Below are positions 3,706 to 61,625 of a DNA stretch of 64,000 nucleotides, piece by piece (within the stretch, counting starts at the first letter, position 1; every line of letters starts with the position of its first letter). Origin of the DNA: Stegostoma tigrinum (taxonomy: Eukaryota); assembly GCF_030684315.1 (NCBI RefSeq), contig NC_081358.1, forward strand, positions 3,038,001-3,102,000. The letters run 5' to 3'. A model generated the notes under the pieces. That model was not told the DNA's origin, did not search any database, and was given only the letters and a program-made list of their open reading frames with translations. Position numbers and translations under genes: made by a program.

Positions 3706-3914
3706 GATCAGAGATAATGGGAACTGCAGATGCTGGAGAATCTGAGATAACAAAGTGTGGAGCTGAATGAACACAGCAGGCCAGGCAGCATCTTAGGAGC
3801 ACAAAAGCTGACATTTCGGGCCTAGAAAGGGTCTAGGCCTGAAACGTCAGCTTTTGTGCTCCTAAGATGCTGCCTGGCCTGCTGTGTTTATCCAGTTCTA
3901 CACTTTGTTATCTA
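3706..3914. mobile_element. Short fold-back palindrome of two inverted PLE family 1 3' ends
   Basis: Arms meet at ggcctaga/aagggtctaggcc; ~15 bp TSD tatSc aaaataatgt at 3691-3705 and 4942-4956 (second copy displaced by a nested insertion). Confidence 0.8.
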
Positions 3915-4927
3915 GTGAGTTTTGAGAAGATTTGTTGCTCAGGTTGAGGTTCTGGATGTGAGTTTGCTCGCTGAGCTGGAAGGTTAGTTTTCAGACGTTT
4001 CGTCACCATTCTAGGTAACATCACCAGTGAGCCTCCGACGAAGCGCTGGTGTTATGTCCCACTTTCTGTTTATCTGTTTAGGTTTCCTTGGGTTGGTGAT
4101 GTCATTTCCTGCATTGGTGATGCCATTTCCTGTTCTTTTTCTCAGAGGATGGTAGATTGACTCCAAATCAATGTGTTTGTTGATGGAGTTCTGGTTGATG
4201 GAGCCACCACACACTACAGCACAGGGGAACTATGAAGAGCAGAAGAAAATCACCTATACAGTGTATTCAAAAAGAATGGGTACCCTACGAACACAGTCCG
4301 CCGATTTCTGAGCAACAAACCCAAACAAACAGACAAAACGGGCCCAGAAACCATGACCACTTTCCCCTACATCAAAGACATTTCCAAAATGACTGCCAGA
4401 CTACTCGGACCTCTTGGCATCAGGGTAGCCCACAAACCCACCAACACACTAAAACAGCAGCTAATGAACTTAAAAGACCTGATTCAGACGACAAGCAAAA
4501 TGAACGTCATCTACAAAATACCTTGCAAGAACTGTGACAAACACTACATTGGACAAACAGGCAGAAAGCTAGCCACCAGGATACATGAACATCAACTAGC
4601 CACAAAACGACATGACCCACTATCACTCGTATCCTTACATACAGATGAGGAAGGACACCACTTTGATTGGGACAACACATCCATCCTAGGACAAGCCAAA
4701 TAGAGACAGCATGAGAATTCCTAGAAGCATGGCATTCCAACCAGAACTCCATCAACAAGCACATTGATCTACCATCCTCTGAGAAAAGAACAGGAAATGA
4801 CATCACCAATGTAGGAAATGACATCACCATTCCAAGGAAACCTAAACAGATAAATAGAAAGTGGGACATAACACCAGCGCTTCGTCGGAGGCTCACTTCC
4901 AGCTCAGCGAGCAAACTCACATCCAGA
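3915..4927 (+). mobile_element. Penelope-like element (family 2) with inverted 5' arm and GIY-YIG fragment, nested in the end of the palindrome
   Basis: NVIYKIPC...HYIGQTGRKLATRIHEH; 3915-4200 is an inverted copy of the 3' end; 13 bp TSD actttgttatcta at 3902-3914 and 4928-4940. Confidence 0.85.
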
Positions 4928-5964
4928 ACTTTGTTATCTACTATCCAAAATAATGTCTCTTGTTATATTTGGACTAAGCAGTGATTTGGGAAACTCTACC
5001 TGAAAAGATAGTGAAAACAGATCTGGTAGTCACTTTAAAAAAATTAGACAAAGATTTGAAAGTATACAGGGCATTGATGAGGACACAGCTGGAATATTGT
5101 GCACAGTTTTGTTCTCCTTAGCTGAGGAACAATGTTCTTGTGGGAGAGTGAGTGTGGCAAAGTTTACCAAATTGATTCCTATATTGTTTGGGCTTATGAG
5201 TATGAGCAGAGATTGAATCATCTAGGATTGAATTCACTGGAATTTAGAAGAATGCTGGGAATCTCTTTGAAACCAGAAAATTGTTCCAGAACTAGGCAGG
5301 ATGCAGGAAGGAAGTTTCAGTTGATGGGGGAGACCAGAACCAGGCGTCACAGTTTAAAGACCAACATAAAATGAGGACCTTTCAGGACTGGGATGAGAAG
5401 AAATTTCTTCAATCAGTTGTGAGCCTGTGGAATACATTACTCCAGAATGTGGTTGAGACCAAATGTTCAACATTTCCAAGAAGGAAGTAAATGCAGCTCT
5501 TGTAGCTGAAGGGATCAAGTGATATGGAGTGTGGGTGTGGGAAGGAAGTCATTTGAGTATTAAATTCCACGATCAACCATTATAATAGTAAATACTGACA
5601 CAGGATCGTGGGGTAGAATGGCCTACTCCTGCTCCTGTTCTATGTTTTTATGCTTCAGGGCTGCAGCAACAAGACAGTGCAACTGATTAAAGAACTCTTT
5701 CAGCGAAACAGCTCTCTGATGAAGGGTCTAGGCCCGAAACGTCAGCTTTTGTGCTCCTGAGATGCTGCTTGGCCTGCTGTGTTCATCCAGCTTCACACTT
5801 TATTATCTTGGTAACACGATAGGCTGAATAGTATCAGACATAATGGGAATGGCAGATTCTGGAGAATCTGAGATAACAAAGTGTGGGGCTGGATGAACAC
5901 AGCAGGCCAAGCAGCATTTTAGGAGCACAAAAGCAGACGTTTTGGGCCTCGACCCTTCATTAGA

Positions 5965-6565
5965 AAACTTCTGATCATGTTGCAGTTGTATAAGACTTTT
6001 GTTCAACCACATTTGGAATACTGCGTACAGTTCTGGTTGCCACATTGCCAAAAGGATGTGGATGCTTTAGAGAGGGTGGAGAAGAGGTCCACCAGGATGT
6101 TGCCTGGTATGGGGGGTGCTAGCTATGAAGAGAGGTTGAATAGATTAGGATTATTTACATTAGAAAGATGGAGGTTATGGGGGGACCTGACTGAGGTCTA
6201 CAAAATCATACAAAGTATAGACAGAGTGAATAGCAAGAAGCTTTTTCCCAGAGTGGGGCACTCAATTACTAGAGGTAATAATTTCGAGGTGAGAGGGGAT
6301 AAGTTTTTAGAAGATATGTGTGGAGAGTTCTTTACGCAGAGGGTGGTGGGTGCCTGGAATGCGTTGCCAGCGGAGGTGTTAGAGGCGGGCACGATAACGT
6401 CATTTAAGATGTATCTAGACAGATCCATGAATGAGCAGGGAGCAGAGGGATACAGATCCTTGGAAAAAAGGTGACAGGTTTAGATAGAGGATATGGATCG
6501 GTGCAGGGTTGGAGGGCCGAATGTCCTGTTCCTGTGCTGAAATTTTCTTTGTTCTTTGTTCTTGT
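5965..6565 (+). mobile_element. CR1 LINE 3' fragment
   Basis: LYKTFVQPHLEYCVQFW...FFTQRVVGAWNALP; (TTCTTTG)n tail. Confidence 0.85.
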
Positions 6566-7099
6566 TCTAAATCTTTGGTATACCCTCTAGCTTTGGACTT
6601 CCCCACCCTAGGAAAAAGAACTCGGCTATTCACCCTGTCCGTGTCCCTCATGATTTTTAAAACCTCTATAAGGTCACTCCTCAGCCTCCAAAGCTCCGAG
6701 AAAACAGCCCTAGCCTGTTTAGTCCTTCCCTGCGGCTCAAACCCTCCAGACCCAGCATCATCCTTGTAAGTGTTTTCTTTACTCTTGTGGTTCTTATATT
6801 CTCTTTCAAATGAATCTGCTGGCAGCCGATGCAATCCATGAGGCGGATTCATTTGACTTTGAAGCATATGGATGTTGTTGTTGTTTCGAATGTGGATCCG
6901 GTTGGAATTGGTTAGAAAAGAATGGTATTTGCATCGTATGTTACAAACGGTTTTTTTGATTTAAGGCATCATGTGGTGCGATCGAATGGGGAATATAGCA
7001 CTCTTAAAGCCAGTCAGGCATGATCATTTGCATGGCAGAACAGGATCAAAGGGCCGAATGAACTACCATGCTCTTTGTCTCTATTTTATGCTACATGAA

Positions 7100-11300: not shown

Positions 11301-11739
11301 ATGAAGGGCCACGTCCTTGCGATTTTTCTAATCTCTCTCCTCGGTCAGTACAACTGATTATTTTCATTGTTCAACATTCTGTAATCTCTGTATTCACAAA
11401 TAACTTGATTTGCAATCTTTTTCACCGGCAGGAAAATCTGTCGCTCAAACGTTGACTCAGTCTCCAATGTCAATGACCAGAGCTCCGAGGAACACAGTTT
11501 GGTTGGACTGTAAGTATGGAGGGAGCGACTTCGACAACGTGGTTATCCACTGGTACCGGCAGATCCCGGGTCAACGGCTACAGCGTATTTTATATTTCAA
11601 GAATCCGTCTGAAACTCGATCCGATATCACCGACATAACAGCACTGGCTGAAAAAAATTCTGCGACCAAAACGTGCACCTTGCTCATGAGGAATGTCAAG
11701 GAGGATGACTCTGGGGTTTATTACTGTGCTTTCTGGGCT
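11301..11739 (+). CDS. TRGV: TCR gamma V segment, type B, apparently functional (leader 11301-11343, intron 11344-11431, V exon 11432-11739)
   Basis: Leader MKGHVLAIFLISLL, GTCAGT donor, ggcAG acceptor; V exon QTLTQSP...WLDC...IHWYRQ...DSGVYYCAFWA with both Cys and the Trp intact. Confidence 0.92.
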
Positions 11740-11778
11740 CACAGTGACAGAAAGTCAGGGGGAACCCGCGCAAAAAGC
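11740..11778 (+). other. 23-RSS of V at 11.3 kb
   Basis: CACAGTG + 23 nt + GCAAAAAGC. Confidence 0.92.
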
Positions 11779-13989
11779 GATCGCTTTCCTGCTGATTGTT
11801 TGCAAACTGTTATCACACAAACGACAGGTGTAGCATTTGCAGAGTTTTACCAGTTCTATACTTCGCGCTCTGTTGCAAAAGCAATTCATTGTTTTCACGG
11901 CGTCCTTTGCACTGTATAGTTAAACTCGGGCGAATAAAATGATTTTGCTCATCCTGCGAAATCTAATTATGGCGATCTGATTGTTCTATAATTGGATGCA
12001 ACATTTCACCCACTACCTCTCATTTTCCATCTTTGAGAAAACTTAAAAATGGGTTTCAAAACCTCCCGTCGTTAAACGCTCATCAATGAATATGCCACCT
12101 AAACTAACAAACCACATCCAATGTATTGCAGTCACGTCCAAAAAAAATGAATAGCGGAGGCCATTCAGCACTGAGAGTCTGTTCCGACATAAAATGAATT
12201 CAAGACGTGAGTGTGTTCTAATTCCAGATACCAACCGTGGATCCACATCTGCAAACAGGAAGGAACATGGTTGGGATAATGTTAGAATACCGGTCATCTA
12301 GAGCCCTGGGCTGAGACACTGGATACAAATTCACAACCGCTACGTTGGTTGAAGGATTACATTTTCAAAAGTTAGATTCAATAATACAATGAAACCACTG
12401 GATTTCCTTGAACGCCAATTGAGTTTACATATAACGCGTAGTCAAATCTGCCATCGTTTCTGTGAGACGTTTCAAACAGCAGTAGGATTGCTTCCTGGGC
12501 AGCCTCAACAATCCAACGGAGTGTATGAGCTGCTGCAGAGAAGTCAATTAAGAATAAAGCAGGAGAATCCATCTCCCTAGCATTGGGTATTGCAAGATAC
12601 CTCTCACTCATACCTGGGATCCTGTATCCATAGTTCAATAAATGGACCAACAGATCATACCTTAAAAACAGCCCCAATCTTGATCATCATCTTGCCTGCA
12701 CAGGGAAGAACAGATTGGCAGGATATCGAAATGTCAACTCTGAAACCCATGAAATTTCATACCGATATTTTTAAATTAACCGGTTCAGATATGTTTTGAC
12801 ACACGTCTGGAGCAGGTGGAACTTGAAGATGGAACTTCTGGTCCAGAGATAAGGGCACCACCATTGCACTACATCTGCCATTAGAAACTTCATCTCTAAC
12901 ATGAATTTTCAGGCAGCCAGATGAAAGATGGTTGGGAAACCTCCAGTTGATGGTGATACTCTGTTCTCAATTGATGCATCTGTTGAATGGGAGGCCAGCA
13001 GGGTGGTACTTCATCAGTCCCCTACATCATAAGATGAGAAATAAGAATATTTGTTGATGATTGCAATGCTCATGTTCATTCATGATTCATCAGAAATTGA
13101 ATTTGTTTATCTCTATATGTAGCAGGATCTGGGCAACATTTAGGCTTGAGCTAAGATGTTCACACAAGCATGAAGGAATGAACATCTGCAACATAAGGGA
13201 ATTTAAGCACCTCCACGTGACATTCAACTGCATCACTAAGACCAACACCATCAACTCTTGGGGGCTGCCATTGACCACAAACTAACTAGGCAACTCTGTA
13301 AACTCTGTGGTTAAAAGACAAGGTCAGAGGCCGGGAATATTGTGGAAAAAGCTCAACTCCTTGCTCCCTAAAGCCTGCCCACCATACAACTCGCTCACCA
13401 GCAGAATGGTGTAATCGTCTACAGTTGCCTGGATGAGAGTGGCCATAATAACACTCAAGAAGTTGAACACCATCCAAGGAAGAACAGTCCACTTTATTGG
13501 AACTCCATTCATCACTTTTCAACATTAACGTACAACAGTTGCTCAGTGTACCATCTGCAAGATGCTCTGCAGTTATTCACCATGGTTCATCTCCTAAACC
13601 CATGATCTCTAGAAAAACAAAGGTAGTAGGTACAAGACCTCCCCACACTGAACTGACTGGAAACATATAAATGTTTTTCATTATCACTGGGTCCAAATGC
13701 TCATACACCCACCTTAACAATGTTGAGTGCACATACACTGCAACCTCTGTGGTGCAGATCCCACAAAATAAACTTTGATAACAAAATACGTTTAGACCCA
13801 GATTAAAATGCATCTATATAATGAGCATGTATTGCTAATGAAATAAATGCTCCAATTTAGCTGCATTTTCATTGTTTTGTATGATTTCACTGAACAGGGA
13901 AACAGAACTGCACAAACTGTTTAGAAGGTAAAAACAAACAAAACAAAAATCTCACATTATATTCCATATGATATGCTTTCCCATCTTAC

Positions 13990-15924: not shown

Positions 15925-18397
15925 AGTATCAGAGATAATGGGAACTGCAGATGCTGGAGATTCCAAGATAATAAAATGTGAGGCTGGATGAACACAGCAG
16001 GCCAAGCAGCATCTCAGGAGCACAAAAGCTGACGTTTCGGGCCTAGACCCTTCATCAGAGAGGGGGATGGGGGGAGGGAACTGGAATAAATAGGGAGAGA
16101 GGGGGAGGCGGACCGAAGATGGAGAGTAAAGAAGATAGGTGGAGAAGGTGTGGGTGGGGAGGTAGGGAGGGGATAGGTCAGTCCAGGGAAGACGGACAGG
16201 TCAAGGAGGTGGGATGAGGTTAGTAGGTAGCTGGGGGTGCGGCTTGGGGTGGGAGGAAGGGATGGGTGAGAGGAAGAACCGGTTAGGGAGGCAGAGACAG
16301 GTTGGACTGGTTTTGGGATGCAGTGGGTGGGGGGGAAGAGCTGGGCTGGTTGTGTGGTGCAGTGGGGGGAGGGGATGAACTGGGCTGGTTTAGGGATGCA
16401 GTGGGGGAAGGGGAGATTTTGAAACTGGTGAAGTCCACATTGATACCATATGGCTGCAGGGTTCCCAGGCGGAATATGAGTTGCTGTTCCTGCAACCTTC
16501 GGGTGGCATCATTGTGGCAGTGCAGGAGGCCCATGATGGACATGTCATCAAGAGAATGGGAGGGGGAGTGGAAATGGTTTGCGACTGGGAGGTGCAGTTG
16601 TTTGTTGCGAACTGTTGCATTCCGCATGGAGATGGCCTCAAGGCCCTCCGCTTCTTCCTGTCCCGCAGGCCCGACCAGGCCCCCTCCACCGACACTCTCA
16701 TCCGCCTAGCGGAACTCGTCCTCACACTCAACAACTTCTCTTTTGACTCCTCCCACTTCCTACAGACTAAGGGGGTGGCCATGGGCACCCGCATGGGCCC
16801 CAGCTATGCCTGCCTCTTTGTAGGTTACGTGGAACAGTCCATCTTCCGCACCTACACAGGCCCCAAACCCCACCTCTTCCTCCGGTACATTGATGACTGT
16901 ATCGGCGCTGCCTCTTGCTCCCCAGAGGAGCTCGAACAGTTCATCCACTTCACCAACACCTTCCACCCCAACCTTCAGTTCACCTGGGCCATCTCCAGCA
17001 CATCCCTCACCTTCCTGGACCTCTCAGTCTCCATCTCAGGCAACCAGCTTGTAACTGATGTCCATTTCAAGCCCACCGACTCCCACAGCTACCTAGAATA
17101 CACCTCCTCCCACCCACCCTCCTGCAAAAATTCCATCCCCTATTCCCAATTCCTCCGCCTCCGCCGCATCTGCTCCCACGATAAGACATTCCACTCCCGC
17201 ACATCCCAGATGTCCAAGTTCTTTAAGGACCGCAACTTCCCCCCCACGGTGATTGAGAACGCCCTTGACCGCGTCTCCCGCATTTCCCGCGACACATCCC
17301 TCACACCCCGCCCCCGCCACAACCGCCCCAAGAGGATCCCCCTCGTTCTCACACACCACCCTACCAACCTCCGGATACAACGCATTATCCTCCGACACTT
17401 CCGCCATTTACAATCCGACCCCACCACCCAAGACATTTTTCCATCCCCACCCCTGTCTGCTTTCCGGAGAGACCACTCTCTCCGTGACTCCCTTGTTCGC
17501 TCCACACTGCCCTCCAACCCCACCACACCCGGCACCTTCCCCTGCAACCGCAGGAAATGCTACACTTGTCCCCACACCTCCTCCCTCACCCCCATCCCAG
17601 GCCCCAAGATGACATTCCACATTAAGCAGAGGTTCACCTGCACATCTGCCAATGTGGTATACTGCATCCACTGTACCCGGTGCGGCTTCCTCTACATTGG
17701 GGAAACCAAGCGGAGGCTTGGGGACCGCTTTGCAGAACACCTCCGCTCAGTTCGCAACAAACAACTGCACCTCCCAGTCGCAAACCATTTCCACTCCCCC
17801 TCCCATTCTCTTGATGACATGTCCATCATGGGCCTCCTGCACTGCCACAATGATGCCACCCGAAGGTTGCAGGAACAGCAACTCATATTCCGCCTGGGAA
17901 CCCTGCAGCCATATGGTATCAATGTGGACTTCACCAGTTTCAAAATCTCCCCTTCCCCCACTGCATCCCTAAACCAGCCCAGTTCATCCCCTCCCCCCAC
18001 TGCACCACACAACCAGCCCAGCTCTTCCCCCCCACCCACTGCATCCCAAAACCAGTCCAACCTGTCTCTGCCTCCCTAACCGGTTCTTCCTCTCACCCAT
18101 CCCTTCCTCCCACCCCAAGCCACACCCCCAGCTACCTACTAACCTCATCCCACCTCCTTGACCTGTCCGTCTTCCCTGGACTGACCTATCCCCTCCCTAC
18201 CTCCCCACCCACACCTTCTCCACCTATCTTCTTTACTCTCCATCTTCGGTCCGCCTCCCCCTCTCTCCCTATTTATTCCAGTTCCCTCCCCCCATCCCCC
18301 TCTCTGATGAAGGGTCTAGGCCCGAAACGTCAGCTTTTGTGCTCCTGAGATGCTGCTTGGCCTGCTGTGTTCATCCAGCCTCACATTTTATTATCTT
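15925..18397 (+). mobile_element. Young Penelope-like retroelement (family 1): inverted 5' arm 15925-~16614, then 5'-truncated uninterrupted RT + GIY-YIG frame ~16615-18079 and 3' UTR
   Basis: GVAMGTRMGPSYA, RYIDD, VYCIHC...LYIGETKRRL; 14 bp TSD ataatatttaattt at 15911-15924 and 18398-18411. Confidence 0.95.
18300..18335 (+). ncRNA. Minimal hammerhead ribozyme motif in PLE 3' repeat (many further copies, e.g. ~5716, 21088, 31511, 39544, and minus-strand copies at ~16030-16057, 20278-20305, 45170-45198)
   Basis: CTGATGA (18304-10), helix II GGGTC-TAG-GCCC, GAAAC (18324-28), GTC cleavage triplet; matches the minimal hammerheads known from PLEs. Confidence 0.8.
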
Positions 18398-20215
18398 ATA
18401 ATATTTAATTTCCCTTCTTAACCACAGTTGCTGTATCTTTTTCTTCAAATCTTTTCCCTCACTGGGATATACCTTTGCTGAAAGACATGAAGTATTTTCT
18501 TAAATATTTGCCATTGTTTCTCAACTGTCTTTGTTGGTGAACTCCTTTTCCCAGTCCACTGCAGCCAGCTGTGCCCTCATATATTGCTAACTAGACTCAT
18601 TAACCCTCATCTGACTTCCAACGCCCATCAGAGTGTTTTTTGCATCGACTGAAATTTTATTAGGATTCATTTATACCACATGTAATGCACCCTTGTATCA
18701 AGGGCCATCGCTGTCATTTCCCCTCCAGTATTCAGATTTATTGTTTTATTTTGGGCTTAGGCTTTAATGACGTCAGGAGCTAAGTGGTTCTCTTGGAAGA
18801 ATATCTAAGGGTCAGTGATCTAACAATTTCTCAGCATGTATGACTTGATTGTATTGTGGATCAACTTTTCCATCATTTTACTTATGATCAACAGCAGAAT
18901 TATTGAAGTTGATAATTGACGTAATTGGATTTGCCCTGCTTTTTGGGCAAATGACTTACCTGGGCAATTTCCCACACTTTTGAGGAGATGCTAGTGTTAT
19001 AACTGCACTGGAGAAGCTTGACAAAGGTTGCAGCAAGTTCTGGAGTAAATATTTTCAGCACTATTCACAGAATACAGCGACAATAGACTTTGCAATATCA
19101 GTGCCTTCAGTCATTTCTTGATACTACACGGTGTGAATTAAATGGGGTGAAGCAAAACAGATTCTTATAAATGCCTGAGCCATGTCTTTTGCAGTGACAT
19201 AATTGTCTCTTCTATCATTGAAGATGGAAATATTTGTGGAATCTCCTCCTCCAGAGAATTGTTTAATAGTCCACCACCACTCACGACTGGTCATGTCGGG
19301 ACTGCACAGCTTATCTCTGATCTGTTGGTTATGGAACCAATTAAGTTTATTGATCATTCACTGCATATGCTGTTTGTTAGGAAATAAATCCTGTGTTGTC
19401 GCTTCACTAGGTTGATACCTCATTTTTAGACCTTCATCGTGTTTTTATTTTGGCAAAACCTCCTGCACACTTCCCATAGATTTTCCCCTAATCTGATGGT
19501 AATGGTGTAGTGGTGAATATATTGAAGTATGAAGTTATAGATTATGTTTGAGTACAATTCTGCTGCTGCTAACTTGTTGAGCTTCATTTGCCCTCTTTTA
19601 CTTGTTATATCACAATTTGACAAGTATTGATATTGACCGGGGAGTGTCAATTGACCACTAACAGCACAGCTTTCTTTGAGTGGTGTTGGGGGTCAGATTT
19701 ACAGAATGACATTTCCCTTTGTACGAAGAAGTGATTCCTGACATCATCAAACTAAAGGGCTCTGGCAACAGTTTTCCAAAATGTCTTAGAGATGGGAGAA
19801 GTGCCAGCCAAATACCTCTATTCCATTTGAGTTCAAAAATGGGGAGAAGGATAAATATGTAGTCATAGGTCTGTCAGTCTAACAGCAGTGGTTAACTTTT
19901 TAAAGCCATTAACCCGATAACAAATTAATTTAACTCTTAAAATCTATAGGCAAATAATAAATGTCACATCATATTTGGTAAAGAGAAATTGTGTCACACA
20001 AATGTTTAGATACAGCTCAGAAACTAAATTGTGAAGATGGCATAAGCAGGTCAAAAAGGGATTTAGAGTAAGTGAAGAATGTGGCAAAATCTAGGAAGTG
20101 GAATCTAATGTGGCAAAGTATAAAACTGTGCATTTTGGCAGGTGTTAAAACAGATTTATGTAGATATTTTCATTGGACATGCTGCATGCTTAGAAATCTA
20201 ACTTTAAAAATGTGG

Positions 20216-21222
20216 ATAATAAAATGTGAGGCTGGATGAACACAGCAGGCCAAGCAGCATCTCAGGAGCACAAAAGCTGACGTTTCGGGCCTAGACCCTT
20301 CATCAGAGAGGGGGATGGGGGGAGGGAACTGGAATAAATAGGGAGAGAGGGGGAGGCGGACCGAAGATGGAGAGTAAAGAAGATAGGTGGAGAGAGTGTA
20401 GGTGGGGAGGTAGGGAGGGGATAGGTCAGTCCAGGGAAGACGGACAGGTCAAGGAGGTGGGATGAGGTTAGTAGGTAGCTGGGGGTGCGGCTTGGGGTGG
20501 GAGGAAGGGATGGGTGAGAGGAAGAACCGGTTAGGGAGGCAGAGACAGGTTGGACTGGTTTTGGGATGCAGTGGGTGGGGGGGAAGAGCTGGGCTGGTTG
20601 TGTGGTGCAGTTGGGGGAGGGGATGAACTGGGCTGGTTTAGGGATGCAGTAGGGGAAGGGGAGATTTTGAAACTGGTGAAGTCCACATTGATACCATATG
20701 GTATCAATGTGGACTTCACCAGTTTCAAAATCTCCCCTTCCCCCACTGCATCCCTAAACCAGCCCAGTTCATCCCCTCCCCCAACTGCACCACACAACCA
20801 GCCCAGCTCTTCCCCCCCACCCACTGCATCCCAAAACCAGTCCAACCTGTCTCTGCCTCCCTAACCGGTTCTTCCTCTCACCCATCCCTTCCTCCCACCC
20901 CAAGCCGCACCCCCAGCTACCTACTAACCTCATCCCACCTCCTTGACCTGTCCGTCTTCCCTGGACTGACCTATCCCCTCCCTACCTCCCCACCTACACT
21001 CTCTCCACCTATCTTCTTTACTCTCCATCTTCGGTCCGCCTCCCCCTCTCTCCCTATTTATTCCAGTCCCCTCCCCCCATCCCCCTCTCTGATGAAGGGT
21101 CTAGGCCCGAAACGTCAGCTTTTGTGCTCCTGAGATGCTGCTTGGCCTGCTGTGTTCATCCAGCCTCACATTTTATTATCTTGGAATCTCCAGCATCTGC
21201 AGTTCCCATTATCTCTGATACT
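20216..21222. mobile_element. ~1 kb near-perfect zero-spacer palindrome made of two inverted PLE family 1 3' ends
   Basis: Centre ataccat|atggtat at 20697/20698; 15 bp TSD actttaaaaatgtgg at 20201-20215 and 21223-21237. Confidence 0.95.
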
Positions 21223-24200
21223 ACTTTAAAAATGTGGGTTTGTTTGTGTTAGCAATTAACTTTTGAAAATTAAATAGCCAGAATTCTAAGTGAGAGGAGG
21301 TGACCAAGAGTTGCTACAGAACGTCAGATAAGAACATTTGAAACTCTGATGTTTGTATTTAGCCTGTGTGAGGAAGTCATTCATGACAGAGAATGTATCA
21401 TGGTCTGAAGTGTGCAGAAGTCACTTGATGGAGTAAAATATGCCAAGCAGCACTCCTATGAAAAGGAGTTTGAAGTTATATTATCTTCGAATAAGAAGTT
21501 ATTATTAATCCTAGACCAACATATTGATATACAATCAGTAGAAAACTTGCGAAGTTAAGTTTTTGAAGTCTTTACACAGAAATGACTTGAAGCTTCACTG
21601 CAGATAGTAAAGCAATGAAAGAAGCTAAATCATGAATGAAATAACTAAGAAAGAGGTATGTCCAGTTCCAAAGTAACTTTTAAAAATGAAGAGAGTCCAT
21701 CTGAATTAGAAATGAGCTGGACTTAGTCTTGGTATGAGTAAAGCACCTGGATGTGTTTTAGAATTGCATGCAATATCTGTGAGTTATTCCAAAAAGATGC
21801 ACCTTGTGATACAAAGCTGATTCTATTCAATCTATAAAAAATTCTTTGGTTATTACTACTGTGTGTTCAAAAATCTTTGATAATGCGGTACAGAAGAACA
21901 GATTGTTTTTGTAATTATTTTTCTCTATTTCTGTTGTTAAACTTTCTGTTGTTTTAGTTTTGAAACAGACAAATATCTGAAATGGATGATACCCTTTGAA
22001 AGAAAGTTACTTCGTGTTGGTTGGAGTTTAGAAGAATAAGTGGCACCTGTTTGAAATATACAAGATGCTAAAGAATCTTGATAGGATGGACGTAGAAAAG
22101 ATGTTGGCTGTGATGATACTGTGGCTTTAAGAAGAGTGTTTTATGTTGGTTTCTGTTAGAGAGACATTAGGGGACAGGTAGTGAGCAGTCTATGAGAGGA
22201 GAAGCAACTTGTGAAACCCTGTGATAATAGGAACTGCAGATGCTGGAGAATCTGAGATAACAAGGTATGGAGCTGGATGAGCACAGCAGGCCAAGCAGCA
22301 TCTTAGGAGCACGAAAGCTGACGTTTTAGGCCTAGACCCTTCATCAGAAAGTTATCTGGTGAACCCCTGAAACTTTATTCAAAAGTTAGAACAATAGAAG
22401 CAACCTGAATGTGTCTGGTTGAGCTCTGACAGAACCAGGGCTTCTAGTTCTTTCGGTGGTAGAAACCGTTGGGGTTGAGAAATGCTGCCACCTTATTGTT
22501 ACGAGTGAAAGCTGGAGCTGTCTCTCTCTCTCAGAATTGTCTTTTGACACTTTTTTCCTCCTAGGTTGGAGAAATGCATATGAGAAAATCTGTTCTCTGA
22601 ATTTGCCTTTTGCCAAGGGAATGTTTATGGGATGTTACGATATTAAAACGCTTACTGGTTAGTAGTAAAACAATCTATTGTTATGTTAAGTTTTCCAATA
22701 GAGTTAAGTAATTCCAATTTCATTCTTCCTTTTTTTGTATTTTAACATAATGTGTTAACAAATTGCATTTTGCTTAACACTGAATAGTTTAACCAGTCGT
22801 ATTGCCCATGGGATACAGGACCTCACATTTACATTTGAAATAAGAAAAAGTTAGATCTAGGCTATCTTCTTAATATATTCCAATGGGTGTGGTCTGGTCT
22901 ATAACATCCCAGTTGTAGGAAAACCTAGAACTAGGGATGAATGTTTAAACATAAGGGGCCACTAACACAGGATAGAAGTAAGGAGACGTTTCTTTCCTTC
23001 ACATGTGATAACTGATCTTTGAAACACTCTTCCTTACATGGTGGTGGAAACAAAGTCCCTGAACATTTTGAATGCCAAGGTTGATAGATTTTTCATAAGC
23101 AAGGGGGTGAAACATTGTTGGTGGTAGACTAGAGTGTGGAGTAATCAAATCAGCCGCAATATTAATGAAAGGCGCAGTAGGCTTTGTCATCGGGTAGCCA
23201 GCTTTGTATGTAATTAAGCAGTGTCTTTGAAATATTGGAATAACTTGACATGGCAAATAGTGTTCATATTCTCTCTACAGATTTCCAAAAGGCATTTGCT
23301 AAGGAATCAAAATGGACTTGTTGTCCAAATTGAAAACCATGAAATTAAATTCACAACGGCTGCATGGTAAATAAATTGTCTACATGTAAGAAAGCAGAAA
23401 ATAGTGATGCATGTATGTTCTTTTCCCCAGTTCACTGAATTATAGAGTGGCTATGGTATAACAAGAAGCCATTGAACCTGTGTTTGCTGCCAATCTGGAA
23501 AAAAAAAACTTATTTAGTGCATTGAACCTCACATTTTTCCTAATTCTTTGCAGTTATTCATCTTGAGAAAATTATTCAATCATGAGAAATAAAAGCAACA
23601 ATACTCAGTGGATCTAGTACTACCTGTGGATAGAGAAACAGAATTATTGTTTTTAGTTAAATATAACATTTCTTCAGACTTCATGTTTAATGCACTGAGG
23701 AAAGGGAATTGAGGGAACAGAGGAAAAGCAAAAGGAAGGTCTGGGCTTGGGTGAAAGTCAAGAGAGGCTAATGCCAAAGATGCCACAGAACAAACAGCAA
23801 AAGGATTGGTCATGGTTGTCAAAATGAAACAAAACATTCAGCTACAGTTAGTATGGATAATAGAACAATGAACAGCTAGCTCCAAAAACAACACAAGGAA
23901 AACTTTTATCAGACTGACATGTGGAATTAAATCAAAACTAAAACTGGGAACAGAGTTCTGAAATTTTTCAAGTCAATATTGAGTCCAGAAGGCTGTAAAG
24001 TTCTTATTTGTAAAACAAAGTGCTAATTTTTGAGCTTGTATTGAATTTCAATTAAACACACAACAGGTCGAACTCAGAATTTTGAGCAAGGTGCAGCATT
24101 AAAATGGCAAGCAACCAGAAGCGTGTATTTTCAAATTATGGGACCGGAGAATGTGTGCAGAATGATGAGGATGAAATCAGGGACAGGGACATTTCAGTTC

Positions 24201-25649
24201 TGGAGAACTGAGTTGTCATTTTCCTCTCAGAGCAGAAGTTAAAGAAAGATTTATGTTGGCTTTTGTGCTCCTAAGATGCTGCTTGGCCTGCTGTGTTCAT
24301 CCAGCTTCACACTTTGTTATCTTGGATTCTCCAGCATCTGCAGTTCCCATTATCTCTGAAAGATTTAATGCACCTGTTTGACAGTCATGCATAGTTTTGC
24401 TAGAGTAAATACAAAGGAAATGTTTGCACTAGCAGTCATTTTGTAACCAAAGGTAATAGAGCTTAGAATGCTCTCTTGCTTGCAATTCTGAGTTTGACCT
24501 TTTTCATGTAAGGGCCTAGGCCCGAAACAGCAGCCTTCCTGCTCCTCTGATGCTGCTTGGCCTGCTGTGTTCACCCAGCTCTACGCCTTGTTATCTCAGA
24601 TTGTCCAGCATCTGCAGTTCCTACTATCTCTAATTAAAATGAAATTGGCTAAAGAAGAAGAAGGGACATGGACAACTTGAACAGCAAAGTTTTTGTGTTG
24701 TAGAATGCTGTCAGAGATGGGATGGGTGCTAATTCAATTGTGTTAGATAAATTGTTCAATGCTAAATAGGTTTAAAGAGCCATGTGGAAATAATAGAAGG
24801 TATGTATAATCTAATGGCACTTCTAAATGGCTAGACAAAATACACAGTATAAACTGAATGTCCTCCATTTGCAATGCAAGTATATATGATTCATTAAACT
24901 GTCAAGACTGGGATGCAATGCAGCCTGTACATTTCAGTCAATAGTTTCCAATTCTCTTGAAGAGGAGCAATAAAAACAGTATGCATCGAGTCTCCAGGAA
25001 TCACTGCTCCCAGTAGTTAATCTATTTTCAAGGCAATGGGTAGCATTGGATGCCAAGCAATTCTAAATGTAATACATCATCAACAAATAGATTACCATAG
25101 ATCTCTCCTGAATTTATGTGATAGTCACAAATATTAAAAGACAGATTGACAGTTCCAAAGTGAGCATAGTTTTGTCATATTCTCCCATTTGTTCATTTTA
25201 CAGAATTCAGAGATTGCTCCAGTAGGGAATTCATGTTTTGTAAATTTAGTCATGCTGACTAGGCTGCTTTGTATTGTCCAGCAGAAAGTGGTGATAATAA
25301 TCCATTGCTGGGGTGGGGGTGCGGGGGGTGTGGTGTGAGTGTAGTGCAGGTTCTCTCAGTGTAGTGTGTAGTGTTTCATTTTGAATAGCTGTTGAAATTT
25401 TTATAGGGTGGCTGTTGCTGTGGATCCAAAATCACATACAAGACAAACTCAGTAATGATGGCAGACTTCCTCCTCGGAAGGATGTTTGTTTCAACAGTAT
25501 CTTTGTTTATTAGGCATTATTGCTGACACATTTTTAAAAATTAATCTAATTGCCTGAATTTAAAATTCCAGATTCTCTAATGGAATTTTGATCATATCTC
25601 CAGATCATTAATCTATTATATAATGAGTATAATAACTTGAGCAACATAA

Positions 25650-39299: not shown

Positions 39300-40082
39300 G
39301 AAAGAAAATGCAAATCTTTAGCACAGTTTCCAATTTAGGAACGCCTCAAAACACTTTGCAGCCCTTGAACTGCTGTGTGAAAAGAGGACTGTCAGTGATA
39401 TTAGTAGCTACTGACTATTAATCCAGACACCTCAGGTAATGCAAGATAACAAAGTGTGTAGCTGGATGAACACAGCAGGCCAAGCAGCATCTCAGGGGCA
39501 CAAAAGCTGACGTTTCAGGCCTAGACCCTTCATCAGACCCTCTCTGATGAAGGGTCTAGGCCCGAAACGTCAGCTTTTGTGCTCCTGAGATGCTGCTTGG
39601 CCTGCTGTGTTCATCCAGCTACACACTTTGTTATCTTGGATTCTCCAGGATCTGCCGTTCCCATTACCCCAGGTAATGTCTTGGGAACCAAGGTTCAAAT
39701 GGTGGAATTTGAATTCAACAAATATCTGGGATTAAGTGTCTGATGATGACCTGAAACCATTGCCAATTGTTGGGCAAAACACATCTGGTTCACTTAACAC
39801 CGTTCAGGGAAAGAAATCAGGGTCTGGCCTACACATGACTCCAAGCCCACAGCATTGCAGCTGATTCTTAACTGCCCTCTGGGCAACTAGCGATCGTCAA
39901 TAAATACTGGCCTGGTCAGTAACGTCCAGTCCCGTAAATGAATGAAAACAAAGAACAATTTTGGGAACTGCTGGAATTAGGAAAACTGGCAGCCAATTTG
40001 CGTTCAATAAGCTTCCAAAAACAGCAATGTGAGAAATATCCAGACAATCTGTTTAATGACGTTGTTTGGGGGATAAGTATTG
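39300..40082. mobile_element. Three-level nest: Deu-type SINE (-), interrupted by LF-SINE-like SINE (+, ~39385-39950), itself interrupted by a PLE mini-palindrome (~39442-39666)
   Basis: Deu-like halves at 39300-39382 and 39975-40082; LINE-type tail at 39880-39950; TSD caggtaatg around the palindrome. Confidence 0.65.
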
Positions 40083-40451: not shown

Positions 40452-43400
40452 CCAACGCAGCCGCACAAGTTTCCAGGCCACAAGTGGAGTCTTTTTACTG
40501 AAATTCCAAATCGCAAAATCAAATTCAGAATTAACTTCAATGTCAATATTTAGAGCCGAGACAAATATAACTGGGGATGGTAAGAACTGCTGATGCTGGA
40601 GTCAGAGATAACACAGTGTGTAGCTGGAGGAACACAGCAGGCCAGGCAGTATCTCAGCAGCAGGAATGTTGACATTTCGGTTCGGGACCCTTCCTCAGGT
40701 TAACTTCCCTGCTCCTCTGATGCTGCCTGGCCTGCTGCTCTCCTCCAGCTCCAAAAATATAACGGGGTTTTTGAATTCAAAGACTGGTGTGGAAAAGGGA
40801 ACAGAGCAATTTCGTTCAGGGAATCAATCTCTCTAACGCCTCGTTAGGGTGACACATCTTGAGGAAACCATTTCAGTTATTTGATCTATTGAAATCCGCT
40901 TAGCTCAGTTGACTTTTCTTACTTACGCGGTACACGAATCTGTGAATCCTTGCATCAGAGATAAGGGGAACTGCAGATGCTGGAGAATCCGAGATAACAA
41001 AGTGTGGAGCGGGATGAACACAGCAGGCCAAGCAGCATCTTAGGAGCACAAAAGCTGACGTTTCGGGCCTAGACTGTGTTCATCCAGACCACACTTTGTT
41101 ATCTGCGAATCTTTGCGACCACTGACCTTTTGGTTTTTGTCGTGTATTTAAATGACAGACAATAGTTGTTTTGTTTCTCTTTTCAACATGTCAATTGTTC
41201 TGAATCACTTTGTGCAAATTCTTAAGTGGGAATAAAATTAAATGTCTATATATGATGGATGTTCAGCGCTAATTATTCATTAATTGATGCATCGTTAAGC
41301 AGATCTTCCCTGCTGTATTAACAAATCACTTTTTTGGTGGTAGCTTCGCCCTAGGTATCATTTCCAACCCATCTCTACGCAAGAGGTTGCTTCTGTTCCT
41401 TCGTCTGAATTTACCACTGCACCTTAAGTCTCTTTGAGAAGCAATGGCAACACATCACGAACAAATTCTTGATTTCCTCGATTTTGGAGGAGGCGTTATT
41501 TCCATTATTTCCGCCTGATGTCGACAGAATCAACTTTCTGAGTATTAATTCCAGTAGCTTGCAATCAAATAAACAGGCACCGCAAAAAATTGATATTATT
41601 TCTAAATTCCAACCTGCTTTATAAGGAAAACGTGGTCGACGGTTGATCAATGGCATGTTATCTTCGTTGATTCCTCAAGTGCATAATTAAGAAGCAGCGC
41701 CTTACAGACTCATTACAAACAGTTCACATGTAAATCTCCGAAAAGAGTTACGTTCCCATGTGCCTTTCCGGAATCCAAAGCAAAATCGGGTGTGTTCACA
41801 CCGTCCGATAATGTTCCTCCAGGGTTTGAGGCACGTTGCTTTCCTGTGGTTTCTGGAGTTTAGGGTGACGCGTGGCCGTGCCAGTGGGAACAGTGCTCCC
41901 AATCACCATGTGGGGGTTTGTGGTGGAGAGTAGCAACATGAAGCCAAAATTCCCTTCAATACTGCACCCTGGTGCGTAGGAAGTTGAGGGGTGACATTAC
42001 ACAAATTATTAAAATCATCGGGCCGTTCAGAGAAAATACGTCTCCTTTCCCCAGCGAGGAGGATTCCAAGACTAGAGGGACTAGAAGACGAGAGGTGACA
42101 GGAAAAATGGTGATTGGGAGCACTGTTCCCACTGGCACGGCCACGCGTCAGACTAAACTCCATAAAAGTCATGAGAGGCATTGTTTTAAAACACAGAGTG
42201 TGGTCCGTGTGTGGAATGAACTTCCAGAGGAAGTGGTGAATGCGGGTGCAGTTACAACGTTTGAAAGATATTTCGATAAGTACATGATTAAGAAAAGTTC
42301 GGAGGGATATGGGCCAAGTACAGGTAAGTGGGACTAGTTTTAATCTGGTATTATGTTCGGCATGAACTGGTTAAGCCGAAGGGTCTGTTTCTGTGCTGAA
42401 TGATTGTATGACTGATTTTTATTCGCATTTCATTTTGTACAGGCTGTTTACTTAACCACGTACCGGTGGGGTTACGTGGAGTCTGCGGCTACTGAGTGTC
42501 TGCTGTGATGTTCAGTTTATTGCATCGGTCATTTGGTAAATCAGCAATGAACATGTTATGTACTTGACAAGAGATCAGAATAACCAGGACCTAGAGTAGA
42601 CAATCCAGCTCCTTGAGCCTACTCCGCGATTTAATATGGTAATGACTCATCTCATCTCGTCCTCAAATCCACTTTCCTGTCCGATCCCCATAATCCTTTA
42701 ACGTAGTACTAATTTCATATCTCTGTGTCCGACTTAGAAATATATTTAGTGTCCTGGCGTCCAAGCACTCTGGGGTGGTGATTTCCAACAGCCTTTGAGA
42801 AAAACAATTCCTCCTCCTTCAGTTCCGCTCTGTGTTATGTCTGACCTCAACATCTGCAGTTCTTACTATCTACTCTGCATTTCTATTTGAAACCTGCCAC
42901 CCACTAATCTAAATCCGTGATTTAATTAAACTGCAATCTCCACTGCACCCCCCTCCCAACCCTGTCCTTCTAAAGTCTAGAGAAGATAGATCCTGACTGC
43001 TCAATCTGTCCTCATAAAACAAACGTTTCAATTCTGGAATTAGTCTTATGAACCTTCTCTGAATTGCCTCCAACACAATTATATCATTCCTGAAGCCAGG
43101 GTATTAAATCTGTGGATACAATCTCACCAATGGCTTTGTACAACTGCAACAACAACTGATTTTATGCTCCATTGTTTTAAGAATAAATGGGAAACATTAC
43201 TTGTCTTTCTTATTACACGTGCACTCGAACATTCAGATCCCATTCCACTGACGAATTTTGATGTTTCTCTCCATTCAGATAATAAGTTGCCTTTTTATTC
43301 TTCTAACCAAGATGAATAACCTCACGTTTATCCATGTTTAGCTCCACATGTAGAATTTTTGTTGATTCCATTCAGTTTACTATATTTAGTGTTATCCCAA

Positions 43401-54700: not shown

Positions 54701-56083
54701 TCTGGAGTGTGCCTATGCGCAGGAGGTCTGGAGGGGGATGCAGTGGTATTTGTCGAGGTTCGTCCCGAGAAGCTCCGTGACGCGGGACTCCGTGCTCTAC
54801 AGGCTGCTTCCCGGGACGCACACCGGGACCAACATCAAATGCGCCTGGAGGACCATCAATGCGGTGAAAGACACTCTTTGGTCTGCCCGCAACTTGCTGG
54901 TCTGCCAGCTGAAAGAACTGACCCCGACCGAGTGTTGCAGACTGGCGCACTCCAAGGTCCAGGACTACGTGCTGAGGGACGCGCTAAAGCTTGGGGCAGC
55001 CGCCGCCAAGGCGCGGTGGGGAAAGACCACGGTATGAAACCCTTCGGCCGCAATGTAACAGGGGCCCTATTCGGTAACTGGGTCCCGCTGGAGCCTTCCC
55101 CAACTGCTCAGGAGGCCAACGGGGACTGTGCAGTGAGATGACCGCCGGGTTTTGTTTTGTTTTGTTTTGTTTTCCTTTTAGTTGGTGTACGTACTCCCAG
55201 GGTAGCCCGGAGCGGCTAGCATGACGGGGTAGGTGTGAGATGTTAATGTGATAATATCCCATTGATTTCTATACTTCTATAAATTAGTCTTTTATCTGCA
55301 TTTGATTCCTATACAGAGACTTTAATTGATAGAAGTAAACTCTTATCTACCTCCACATCGGTATGCAGGCACTGCCCTGAAGCTTCCTGCCCAGCTAGGA
55401 ATTCAGTGTAAAGCTTTTGTAACTCCTGATCTTCTCACACATCGGTATGCAGACACTGTCTGAAGCTTCCTGGCTGAATTAAAATTAGAATTAAACTGTT
55501 TCAAATAGGGTTAGGTGGGGAAATTTTGGAAAGGTGTGAAACCTCTAAAGCATGTAATTTCTGTCACTGACACAGGGGCCAGGGCACTGATTTTGTTCTA
55601 GCCAGACATACTGGCAACTTGAAATCACAATCTGTCCCGGACAACAACTCGAAATCGCCTCCTGCCATTAGCAGCTACTTCACTGGCAATCAATACTATA
55701 TCCTGGTCTTTTATGTTGTTGGATGTAATAATTGCTTGGTATCCTGTTTTTGTCAGTTGTAGTAATTGTTTTATGTATCATGTCATTGTAAATTGTGAAA
55801 TCGTTTTATGTATCATGTCTTTTGTAAAGTAGAAAACGCGGGGACTGTCCGCTGCTCGGGGAGAATTACTTGCGAGACTCTGCACTCTGTGCACTGTTGA
55901 GTACAATGATTCTCCATGGCTTGTACTTGCTTGGTAATAAAAGGATTTGTGTTTTTCTAAACAGGTCAGTGTCTTGTTATTGCAACAAGTCTGTGAGGGT
56001 CTCCAAAAACGAACTTGACAGGTGTATGAATGTTTATTTTTTGTACATTCTCTGAATAAAGTATATTTTTTTAAATAAAAAAA
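51770..56083 (+). mobile_element. Tx1/L1-clade LINE, 5'-rearranged, with long 3' UTR and A-rich tail
   Basis: RLISVYAP, YTWS..RID..SDH (APE), LDQEKAFDRV, GVRQGCPLSP, LYMDD, ETVDHLLLEC zinc knuckle; AATAAA and A-tail at ~56055-56083. Confidence 0.9.
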
Positions 56084-58410: not shown

Positions 58411-59401
58411 AGTGATTTCACCTCGCTAGACGATCCTTTCTGAAGAAGGATCCAGGCACAAATCGTCGACTCTCCTGGGCCTCTGATGCTGCCTGGCCTG
58501 TGTTCCTCCAACTCCACATTGTGTTATCCCTACCAATGAGTTCCTTTACTATTCCTGTTTCAACATACAGGACCAGATCAAGACAGCTTTTTCCCTCGTT
58601 AATCCTCTTCCATACTGTTCGAGGAAACTAGGGCAGATACATTCTCGGAACTCCTCCTCAATCTGGTTTGAATGACTTGGTTTGACCAATCAATATCCGG
58701 ATTAAGATCTCCCATGATAATTGCAGCACTATTTTTACAGACAAATCCTTTGTTTATTGCCCACCCCACCGACATGGAATTAGTTGGTGGCTGATGAACT
58801 GCGCCTATCAGTGAATGATCATTTGTACCCCGAATGTAGATTTTGTTGGGATGTTTGCCGTAGATTTCCTACTGGGAACAGCAGGATCATGAACAACAAC
58901 TTTAGTTAAGATGATTAGGAGTTCAGAACATATATTTCTTTGCCAATATTTCGGGAATCCACCCTTCGAGAGAATGGAGCGAATTCACTGTCAAATTTGA
59001 TAATTTTTGTTACAGTTGCGTCTGCTTCACTCCTCGCCCCGCCCACTCCACTCACTGAGTCTACCCGCGCTCACCTCCCAGTCTAGTGCAAGTGAGCAGA
59101 TTAACTCGGAGCAACTTCTTTAAAATTTACAACCCGAAACGGGATTTTAAATTAACACTTCCCGTGTCTGTGAAAGCAAAATAAACCAATGACAAACACG
59201 GAGAATAAGCGGTCTCACATTTTATGAAGGAGCATTAAAGTGGGCGGGTTCAATTTATGCTGAGAGCGGAAATTCCCGCCGTTGAGGGGCGGGGTTGGTG
59301 TGGGGTTGGGGGTGTGGGAGAGGCAGAGGAGATCTCGCCTCCTTTATAGACATGACCCTGAGCAGCAGTAACCCAGTACCGAGCGAGCCGGTCACTGCAC
59401 C

Positions 59402-59822
59402 ATGTTCCGGGTAATTGTGGCGCTACTTTTGTCCTGTGCGTATTTAAGTGTCTTTACTGAAGTTTACTTAGTTGCCAGTCCTTCATTCATCATCGTTTAA
59501 AACGTAACTTTGTTAATTTTATTTTCCCAGATGTGCGTTTGGCTGAGTCTATAACACAGTCACCGATATCGTATGTAACCAAGCTCGGTAAAAGTGCCAG
59601 GTTTAAATGTACCGTAGACAGCGGCAGCACCACGGTCCATTGGTACCAGCGCCGGGAAGGTCAGGCGCCCTCCAGAATACTTTATTATGGCAGCAGCGTC
59701 GTACGGGATCCGGAATTCGGCAGCAGGTTTAAAGCGGATAAGAGGAACACTTTGTGCACTTTGATCATCAATAACATCGAGAAGGAAGACGCTGCCACAT
59801 ATTACTGCGCCTATTGGGACAG
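59402..59822 (+). CDS. TRGV: TCR gamma V segment, type C copy 2, apparently functional (leader 59402-59435, V exon 59531-59822)
   Basis: Identical to the 29.5 kb gene except one CDR2 base (GAC>GGC, D>G, 59690). Confidence 0.92.
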
Positions 59823-59861
59823 CACAGTGTTCAACAGAGACTGAAAGCCTTTACAAATACA
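59823..59861 (+). other. 23-RSS of V at 59.4 kb
   Basis: CACAGTG + 23 nt + ACAAATACA. Confidence 0.92.
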
Positions 59862-60004
59862 CGGCGCTTCAGCTCGGTCTACACTCAGCTCCCACACCAA
59901 CAACACCAGCTTGCATTTATAAAGCGCCTTTAACGTAGGAAATCGTCCTACTTAGTCTTGGAAGATACAGCATTAAACAAATTTTAATATGAAGCTTTTA
60001 ATAC

Positions 60005-61625
60005 ATCATCGAATAAAAACCGAAAGAACTACTGACGCTGTCAATAAAGAACAAAAACAGTAGCTGCTGAAAAATGCTCAGCAGGTCTTCCAGCATCTGT
60101 GAAGAAAAATCAGAATTAACTATTCGGGCCGAGTGACCCTTCCTCAGAGCTACGATAGTTGGGGAAACGTCGGTTTATGTGCAGAAAATAAGGCTTAGAT
60201 GGGGTCGGGAGTAAACGAGAGGATCGAGCATGAAAAGAGCAGTTGGATAGACAACGGAGTTGATAACGATCTGGCTAAGAGGGTGAGCAGTTGTTACAGG
60301 AGACTGTTAGTCACTAACAATAGGTAGTGTGTAATTGCAGGCTACGTGATAACAGGGCCTGGTGTGTGCGGTAGACAGCTAGGTCATGGGAGAGTCTAGG
60401 CCCTAAAATTATTGAACTCGATATTGAGCCAGGAGGGCTGCAAGGTCCTCAAGCCGAAAAAGAGGGAGTTCTTCTGGGATAATCGGGACTGCAGATGCTG
60501 GAGAATCCGAGATAACAAAGTGTGGAGCTGGATGAACACAACCGGCCAAACAGCATCTTAGGACCAGAAGGGTGAAGGGTCTGATGAGGGGTCTAGGCCT
60601 GAAACGTCAGCTTTTGTGCTCCTAAGATGCTGCTTGGCCTGCTGTGTTCATCCAGCTCCACACTTTGTTATGTCTCTACTTCTTCTGGCTTCTTCTGAGC
60701 TACACTGGAACACTGCAGCTAGCTTGAGACTGAGATGTTGGCCAGGGAACAGAGTGGTGTGTTAAAGTGGCAGGCAACAAGTAGTTCAGGGTCATTTTGA
60801 AGGCAGAACGTGGGTGTTCTGGAAGCCGGCAGCCAGTCTATGCTTGGTTTCCCCAAAGTAGAGGAGATCACATTGTGAGCAGCCAATGCAGTAGACTAGA
60901 TTCTGCAAATTGCAGGTGAATTGTTGCTTCACATTGAAGGTATGTTTGGACCCTTGAATGGTGGGGTGAGAGGAGGTAAATGGGCAGGTGTTACACCTTC
61001 ACCAGTTGCAGGAGAAAGTGCATTAGGGCCGTGGGGTGTGTTGGGAGTGAAGGAAATGCGGACCAGGGTGTTCTTGAGGGAACTGTCCCTGCAGAAGCGG
61101 GCTAGGGAGGGTAGGTGAATATGTGCCTGGTGGTGGCATCACACTGGAGGTGGCAGAAGTAGTGTCTGATGATCTTCCCGATGTGGATGCTGGTGCGATG
61201 GTAGGTGAGCACAACGGGAACCCAATCACTCTTGAGGGAGGGAAGAGTAGGGGTGAGGGCGGAAGTGCGGCAGATGGGTTTGGTCGACACGCAGCTGGAG
61301 AATCCTCGTCTGAGGAAAAATGTGGATTTTTTGGAGGCTCCCTTGTCGAAGTTGGCCTCATCTGAACATATGTGACAGAGACGGAGGAACTGAGAGTATG
61401 GGATGGAGTCTTTACCAGAAGTGGGATGTGATGATGTATAGTCCAGGTAGCTGTGGGAGTTGGTGGGTTTATAGTGGATATTAGTGGCCAGTCTATCCCC
61501 CAAAATGGAAGTAGAGATGTCAAAGAAGGGATGGGAGGTGTCAGAGATAGACCAGGTGATAGTGAGGGCAGGGTGAAATTGGAAGCGAATTTGATGGACT
61601 TTTCCAATTCAGAACAAGAGCAAAT
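60005..61625 (-). mobile_element. Older PLE copy with nested mini-palindrome (~60478-60671)
   Basis: HYKPTNSHSYLDYTSSHP...IPYSQFLRL on the minus strand; TSD ttcttctgg around the nested hairpin. Confidence 0.8.

Follow-up and report, generated by a model that had tools for sequence, protein, structure and literature searches.

Short solo and head-to-head Penelope-like insertions in Stegostoma tigrinum share a 5' edge that likely reflects the capped start of their RNA template

The stretch of Stegostoma tigrinum DNA considered here (contig NC_081358.1, positions 3,038,001 to 3,102,000; 64,000 nucleotides, hereafter the window) carries many short insertions, 100-240 bases long, that consist only of the end of a Penelope-like element (PLE), from its hammerhead ribozyme to its terminus, either alone (solo stubs) or as two arms joined head to head (hairpins). 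This raises the question of what sets their 5' edge. A sequence-only reading of the window had proposed that reverse transcriptase (RT) halts, or changes template, where the ribozyme folds, or else that the hairpins form a self-propagating, ribozyme-delimited class. It will be argued below that stubs and hairpins are short PLE insertions whose 5' ends, at -4, likely result from RT running off the capped start of the RNA. All offsets are counted from position 0, the first base of CTGATGA in the hammerhead core (window 18304).

The reference copy is a young 5'-truncated Neptune-type PLE on the forward strand (15933..18397), composed of an inverted arm (-556..+130) and a sense copy (-1689..+93) and flanked by a 14-bp target-site duplication (TSD, at 15911 and 18398). 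It carries an open reading frame (ORF) with RT and GIY-YIG endonuclease domains, whose RVT_1 and GIY-YIG matches are both weak and below Pfam gathering scores. RT and GIY-YIG, the latter C-terminal, also share one ORF, with natural breaks, in L149 and L150, where a truncated copy lies ahead of a 3.6-kb full-length unit as a partial tandem. Upstream of the LYIG motif, the parent element has the linker CNRRKCYTC (CX4CxxC), and a CX2-5CxxC linker before GIY-YIG is a mark of Neptune and Nematis (PMC8557442). Judged from its sequence by linker and ORF domains, the parent is a Neptune-type, endonuclease-positive (EN+) PLE. Translation from the ATG within its core would end after 13 codons, and the start of the long ORF seems to lie near +168. 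The 3' ends of the copies are bimodal (~+91/92 and ~+127-130), in agreement with the tail and the pair of internal RT starts of the anole PLE discussed below. The minimal hammerhead core (CTGATGA, helix II, GAAAC-GTC; 18304..18331, forward strand), with a predicted cut at 18331/18332 (+27/+28), was called by sequence with the definition of PMC4209133. An Rfam scan of the window gave no match at gathering score, and minimum-energy folds of the leader depended on the span chosen and did not reproduce a stable hammerhead.

The position of the 5' edges was studied in a random sample of ~0.04% of the 3.2-Gb genome: 1.34 Mb, N excluded, from 136 stretches of 10 kb placed at round-number positions. 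The 332 seed matches, 13 of which were dropped, gave 290 copies outside the window, each aligned to its nearest long copy; alignment to a single reference had produced histogram peaks at -1 and +5 that are a subfamily artefact. End rates were computed on the 196 non-window copies at least 90% identical, with small counts per base and with hairpin arms counted separately, so that the ends are not fully independent. In this set, 50 of 119 copies stop at -9..0, i.e., 0.053 per base. The rate is 0.019 at +1..+9, 0.006 at +10..+19, 0.009 at +20..+29 and 0.010 at +30..+39, and it falls to 0.0015 at -10..-49 (4 ends) and to 0.000-0.005 further upstream. Only 6.7 ends would be expected at -9..0 from the rate at +10..+49 (0.007 per base; Poisson p ~8e-27). 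The peak is present in every subfamily bin. By identity class, 23 of 76 copies stop there at 95% or more and 36 of 60 below 90%. Furthermore, by hand count, half of the TSD-bearing solos at least 90% identical (10 of 20) start in -5..+1, which indicates that the edge of the peak is a primary insertion boundary. Exact-pattern counts over the whole genome, which detect only unmutated young copies, give ~5,500 edges at -4 (582 counted plus ~4,900 scaled from 26 of 30 loci), 1,713 at -3 and 289 at +31, and 63,905 copies reading through -7.

The 5' breakpoints thus peak near the hammerhead, as the sequence-only reading had suspected, and a smooth length decay is refuted. That reading had placed them within CTGATGA or helix II or a few nt away: the peak is real, but its most frequent position is -4/-3, upstream of the core, and helix II shows no peak. 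A peak at the predicted cut (+28) was also rejected, as only 6 of 305 local copies start there, all but one being hairpin arms at a palindromic AGCT, and the signal is inseparable from AGCT microhomology. The combination of raised rate, peak and cliff fits a mixture of templates ending near -4 and templates that do not end there. Position -4 itself, the modal 5' edge of the stubs, corresponds to window 18300..18300 on the forward strand and would be the transcription start.

Could the ribozyme fold, or a protein bound to it, stop the RT or make it switch template? The peak adjoins the core, the rate is already up at +1..+9, and the folds of L236 and L059 lie on the helix II palindrome. However, stalling should leave ends on the 3' side of helix II (~+19) or at the cut (+28); the ends are instead found beyond the entire core, on its 5' side, and the rate collapses just upstream. 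In addition, helix I, as read from the sequence, has only ~2 bp. Copies that meet the same structure twice give a further control: 42 distinct copies carry leader and body, 23 of them pass position 0 again, and only one of these 23 stops (at -4), compared with 50 of 119 (p=2.6e-4) or with 23 of 76 in the 95%+ class (p=0.011). In the same way, none of 11 young copies of a second hammerhead-bearing family, of Poseidon type, stops at -9..0 (p=0.007, and 0.033 against young copies). A stall also leaves unexplained the G excess described below, and this first mechanism of the sequence-only reading appears quite unlikely.

Two features of the sequence around -4 may point instead to the start of a transcript. 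The first is a TATA-like box, TATTTAT (18270..18276, forward strand), which begins 30 nt before the peak and may act as a promoter element. Of 65 long copies outside the window, 60 retain it (at -34 in 43 and at -35 in 13), across three subfamilies that differ in the neighbouring bases; the bases at -4 themselves, in our view, resemble initiator or TCT motifs. The second feature is an extra G. In the exact genome-wide counts, G precedes the -4 edge in 5,699 cases and A in 914 (582 without C at -6), whereas the control edge at +31 shows no G excess (136 G and 153 A). Because inverted arms can supply the G, the preceding dinucleotide was counted as well: TG is found 879 times before -4 against ~111 TA (scaled from 19 among the 100 matches listed), compared with ~34 TG and 23 TA at the control edge (Fisher p=6e-8, on scaled numbers). 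In the local sample, G precedes 7 of 9 non-hairpin edges at -4 and 6 of 25 at +10..+60 (p=0.013). Untemplated G at full-length L1 and SVA insertions has been ascribed to copying of the cap (PMC3287187), and TATA plus initiator motifs have been suggested in a pseudo-LTR (pLTR, the PLE counterpart of a long terminal repeat) of Adineta (PMC2377424).

RNA ends near -4 could also arise by processing, either because 5'-to-3' decay is halted by a bound protein or by the folded leader, or through a splice-related cut. The raggedness of the peak would suit such an origin; in other insertions the ends coincide with shared but arbitrary ends of the template (-123, -172 and -280), so RNA fragments are used, and the intron end of D. 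virilis has been located on the 5' side of helix I (PMC4209133). This explanation nevertheless seems unlikely, as the G excess is strongest at -4 and the TATA-like box is conserved at the usual distance. Moreover, no upstream sequence common to the edges, as expected for a spliced exon, was found: the flanks all differ or are TSDs.

Several observations weigh against a capped start at -4. The 5' peak is ragged, extending from -8 to +1, and the TATA-like motif can also be read as part of a splice-acceptor-like tract. The source of the G is partly confounded: in the first 30 G loci, it comes directly from the inverted arm in 9, from short re-copied patches in 4, from substitutions in long copies in 4 and from none of these in 13. 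A G excess is also present at -3 (69 G and 31 A among the 100 matches listed; TG:TA 12:4), and the pooled -8..-1 class of the local sample shows none (19 G and 24 A of 70). Addition of C by RT could happen wherever a template ends, with or without a cap. Both controls, second-pass and Poseidon, comprise few copies picked by search, and they may favour processive events or reflect a different enzyme. Finally, the promoter of Drosophila Penelope is internal, TATA-less and starts well upstream of its own hammerhead (PMC2377424, PMC4209133).

Other insertions suggest that template ends can be read directly from cDNA ends. L065 (6750-8427) is one TSD-flanked insertion with starts at ~+91 and +130-137, in which both arms reach -123, jump to +324 and repeat; the repeated -123..+324 units may result from end-to-end template jumping or from a 447-nt circle. 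In L181 and L193, both arms and the tandem repeats share one end, at -172 and -280 respectively. These shared ends indicate that 5' breakpoints can be the ends of a single RNA template. In the centres of L244 and L246, the cDNA reaches -4, gains a G and resumes from -95 (L244) or +53 (L246); these would be jumps from the run-off end. Six loci (L170, L179, L181, L189, L193 and L194) have 3' ends deeper in the leader or ORF start, at +337..+419, which may be further RT start points or RNA 3' ends, and three of them begin at -2..-6. Among the 42 leader-plus-body copies, 7 end at +84..+114, near their own start, the expected outcome of a circle or of a strand transfer.

The hairpins were compared in the same sample, where pairing was limited to arms extending less than ~290 nt upstream. 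Fifty-eight were found outside the window, 42 of them with a TSD of 7-19 bp, against a call rate of 0.45% on 2,000 shuffled solo flank pairs. Exactly one tailed and one tail-less arm are present in 51. At the fold of these 51, the longer arm is the tailed one in 14 and the tail-less one in 16, and both are within 3 nt in 21. Snap-back of a single cDNA cannot yield 16 longer tail-less arms; both arms are therefore likely to have been copied from RNA, in line with the cutting and extension of both strands by the anole element. Symmetric folds lie on short palindromes (AGCT at +28, helix II, and CCATATGG at -395), and the spacers are in many cases nearby sequence that was copied again. A long perfect palindrome in the window (20215..21219, TSD 17 bp) is of this kind, both arms stopping at -395 on the natural CCATATGG palindrome. 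The fold points do bear the marks of template switching and of end joining: microhomology, templated spacers and the jumps in L244, L246 and L065.

Near-symmetric hairpins (21 of 51), the many folds on short palindromes and the self-priming proposed in PMC3846280 would also agree with snap-back of the cDNA, or with long palindromes shrunk by central deletion after insertion. As TSD-flanked solos share the peak and 16 of the 51 tail-less arms are the longer at the fold, such an origin is extremely unlikely; it is largely refuted for the peak and may contribute to trimming.

The other proposal of the sequence-only reading, a self-propagating non-autonomous hairpin class, draws on high copy number (~138,000 hairpins genome-wide, by extrapolation from 1.34 Mb), on the hairpins' own TSDs and on the ability of PLE ends to work in trans (PMC3846280). 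Some junctions do recur: three among the 30 G-selected loci, found 4, 2 and 2 times. However, all 58 randomly sampled hairpins have distinct junctions, the outcome that this reading had associated with by-products, and two of the three recurrent junctions have the tail on opposite arms (L241/L243 versus L263/L265) or belong to different subfamilies (L240 versus L249). Recurrence of this sort is what a sharp peak would yield if junctions formed there repeatedly. Hairpin arms can be assigned to the long subfamilies, with concordance in 24 of 26 typed pairs, and the anole PLE requires RNA downstream of its start sites (PMC11167929), which the stubs do not contain. The pattern of descent from a short master with fixed ends was not found, a rare short master being compatible with a 0.04% sample. 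A self-propagating class thus appears very unlikely: stubs and hairpins are abundant one-off by-products of a known class, and no new class of mobile element.

These observations can be assembled into a scheme based on a capped start at -4. The TATA-like box at -34 would start transcription at -4, making the hammerhead the first feature of the RNA. The element's protein would bind the 5' leader and begin cDNA synthesis internally, near +92 or +130, as does the anole PLE in vitro. From this leader start, only 95-135 bases would be copied before the RNA ends, often with addition of a C opposite the cap (a G in the genome). Extension of one end of the staggered break would give a solo; extension of both would give two cDNAs (one from +92, one from +130) whose head-to-head junction forms through microhomology or templated patches, and joining would trim many arms back to +1..+60. 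Long copies would come from templates that do not end at -4, i.e., a downstream pLTR, tandem read-through or a ribozyme-made circle. Stubs are likely dead ends because they have no upstream box and no downstream leader.

A bolder extension is that PLEs replicate like a primer-less retrovirus: RT would always start in the 5' leader and synthesize a strong-stop cDNA up to the cap, which would then either be integrated as stub or hairpin or be moved to the 3' pseudo-LTR or to a ribozyme-made circle for long copies. Hints in this direction are the jump of L244 from -4 plus G into the 3' region, the tandem jumps of L065, L179, L181 and L193, and the 7 of 42 ends near their own start. We regard it as a possible but doubtful extension.

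Within the window, all five hairpins and all five solos named by the sequence-only reading are present and derive from PLE ends. Each of the five hairpins has its own TSD (11-16 bp), as had been stated for several of the insertions; none was found for four of the five solos. Fold points had been placed close to the core; some hairpin arms end far from it (+33, +34 and +61). The first hairpin (3707..3913) has a tailed left arm, +130..+11, and a right arm, +6..+92; its 15-bp TSD (3691-3705 and 4942-4956) is split by a Poseidon-type PLE fragment with an inverted arm and its own hammerhead (3914..4927), nested at its right end and flanked by its own TSD (3902-3916 and 4928-4942). The second (39442..39666, TSD 13 bp) has arms -1..+94 and -6..+122. 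The third (40576..40752, start approximate), of an old subfamily, has arms from +2 and +34, an 11-nt spacer and a 15-bp TSD with 2 mismatches. It is followed by a hairpin with arms +10..+130 and +61..+92 (40954..41104; TSD 16 bp, 2 mismatches), and the last one (60473..60671, TSD 11 bp) joins arms +33..+129 and -1..+90 through a 10-nt spacer.

As for the solos, -4..+93 (5712..5809, forward strand) and -4..+130 (5833..5967, reverse strand) are both preceded by G at the edge, and no TSD was found for either; they lie tail to tail, 23 bp apart, beside a fragment of a long interspersed nuclear element (LINE). A solo covering -3..+124 (22223..22350, reverse strand) has a 14-bp TSD with 2 mismatches. 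No TSD was found for an older forward-strand solo with a decayed core and an edge at +6 or -6 (24504..24630, start approximate), nor for a divergent one covering -5..+91, 73% identical (58435..58528, forward strand). Another solo, absent from the sequence-only reading, starts at +29, adjoining the predicted ribozyme cut (24259..24357, forward strand; TSD 10 bp). Further divergent hammerhead-like or PLE-end motifs, probably of older families, are found at 3497, 23677, 43431, 60147 and 62589.

These insertions lie in a V-gene cluster, where V-set segments stand amid LINEs and PLEs. The immunoglobulin-superfamily V segments form a tandem array (1924-2457, 11404-11916, 29517-29897, 34672-35157, 59461-59844 and 63157-63633; Pfam V-set in 5 of 5 tested) and, from their motifs, we take them to be T-cell-receptor-like; those at 29517 and 59461 are near-identical duplicates. 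A broken LINE-like element, possibly of Tx1/L1 type, occupies 51924-55037 (RVT_1 match at 53445-54365). Elsewhere in the genome, five loci on small contigs (L112-L116) carry the same PLE copy and flank at 99.5% identity or more, as a result of either segmental duplication or redundancy in the assembly.

Were the peak the capped RNA start, transcripts would open with the hammerhead as their first structure, uncleaved RNA would be the source of most copies, and each head-to-head insertion would combine two cDNAs templated by RNA. The footprint measured here likely marks this start and supports two-ended synthesis. Should PLEs indeed replicate like primer-less retroviruses, the genome would hold a base-resolution record of their cycle. 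In annotation, ~690,000 PLE ends and ~138,000 hairpins, both extrapolated from the 1.34-Mb sample, could be mislabelled as miniature inverted-repeat transposable elements (MITEs) or as candidate microRNA or ribozyme genes.

The architecture itself has already been published: solo pLTRs, inverted truncated copies, tails and opposite-strand pairs of hammerheads (PMC8557442, PMC3846280, PMC4209133). The start-site footprint at -4 is apparently the new part, as no description of PLE stubs with a cap G or a peak due to run-off was found in the literature searched, with subscription papers and supplements outside its coverage; nothing on such stubs was found in the available parts of PMC5753468 and PMC6765202. 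The origin of PLE pseudo-LTRs, head-to-head arms and tails has been named as an open question (PMC8557442, PMC11167929). Insertion units of EN+ PLEs comprise partial tandems, an inverted 5'-truncated copy and a one-sided tail of 30-40 bp (PMC8557442, PMC3846280). The insertions described here share with them head-to-head arms, a one-sided tail of ~35 bp, TSDs, a partial tandem around a full-length ORF and a pLTR hammerhead. They differ in that most copies are stubs of 95-135 bases with a sharp peak at -4/-3, and most TSDs measure 10-19 bp; for the published units, neither a peak of this kind nor a cap G or a model of run-off was found in the available text of these two papers.

Among the minimal hammerheads of metazoan PLEs, many single motifs have been interpreted as truncated PLEs, pairs on opposite strands separated by 100-700 bp have been noted and a circular template has been proposed (PMC4209133). 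The core is the same here, but truncation lies 5' of it, not at the cut. For PAc, the Poseidon of Anolis carolinensis studied in vitro, two internal RT starts downstream of the hammerhead define the tail, both DNA strands are cut and extended, and uncleaved RNA is the main substrate; RNA 5' ends and mini-hairpins were not found treated in the available part of that study (PMC11167929). As at L1 and SVA insertions (PMC3287187), run-off at the capped RNA start would leave a G. The present element would resemble PAc in having two start sites downstream of the hammerhead and in two-strand extension, and differs from this Poseidon in being Neptune-like, with a CX4CxxC linker.

MITEs of DNA transposons are short, high-copy elements with inverted ends and TSDs; they have equal terminal inverted repeats, a distinct interior, a TSD of fixed length and homogeneous families. 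The short insertions do look like MITEs, as had been observed from the sequence alone, but their whole body is an inverted repeat of a retroelement end, and a MITE identity does not agree with the unequal arms, TSDs of 7-19 bp and unique junctions (58 of 58 distinct). In retroviruses, the minus-strand strong-stop DNA is a short first cDNA that spans the region from the primer site to the cap. The short cDNAs proposed here likewise extend from a start site to the cap; unlike strong-stop DNA, they would be primed by target DNA and integrated, with no tRNA primer or LTR and with strand transfer as a hypothetical step.

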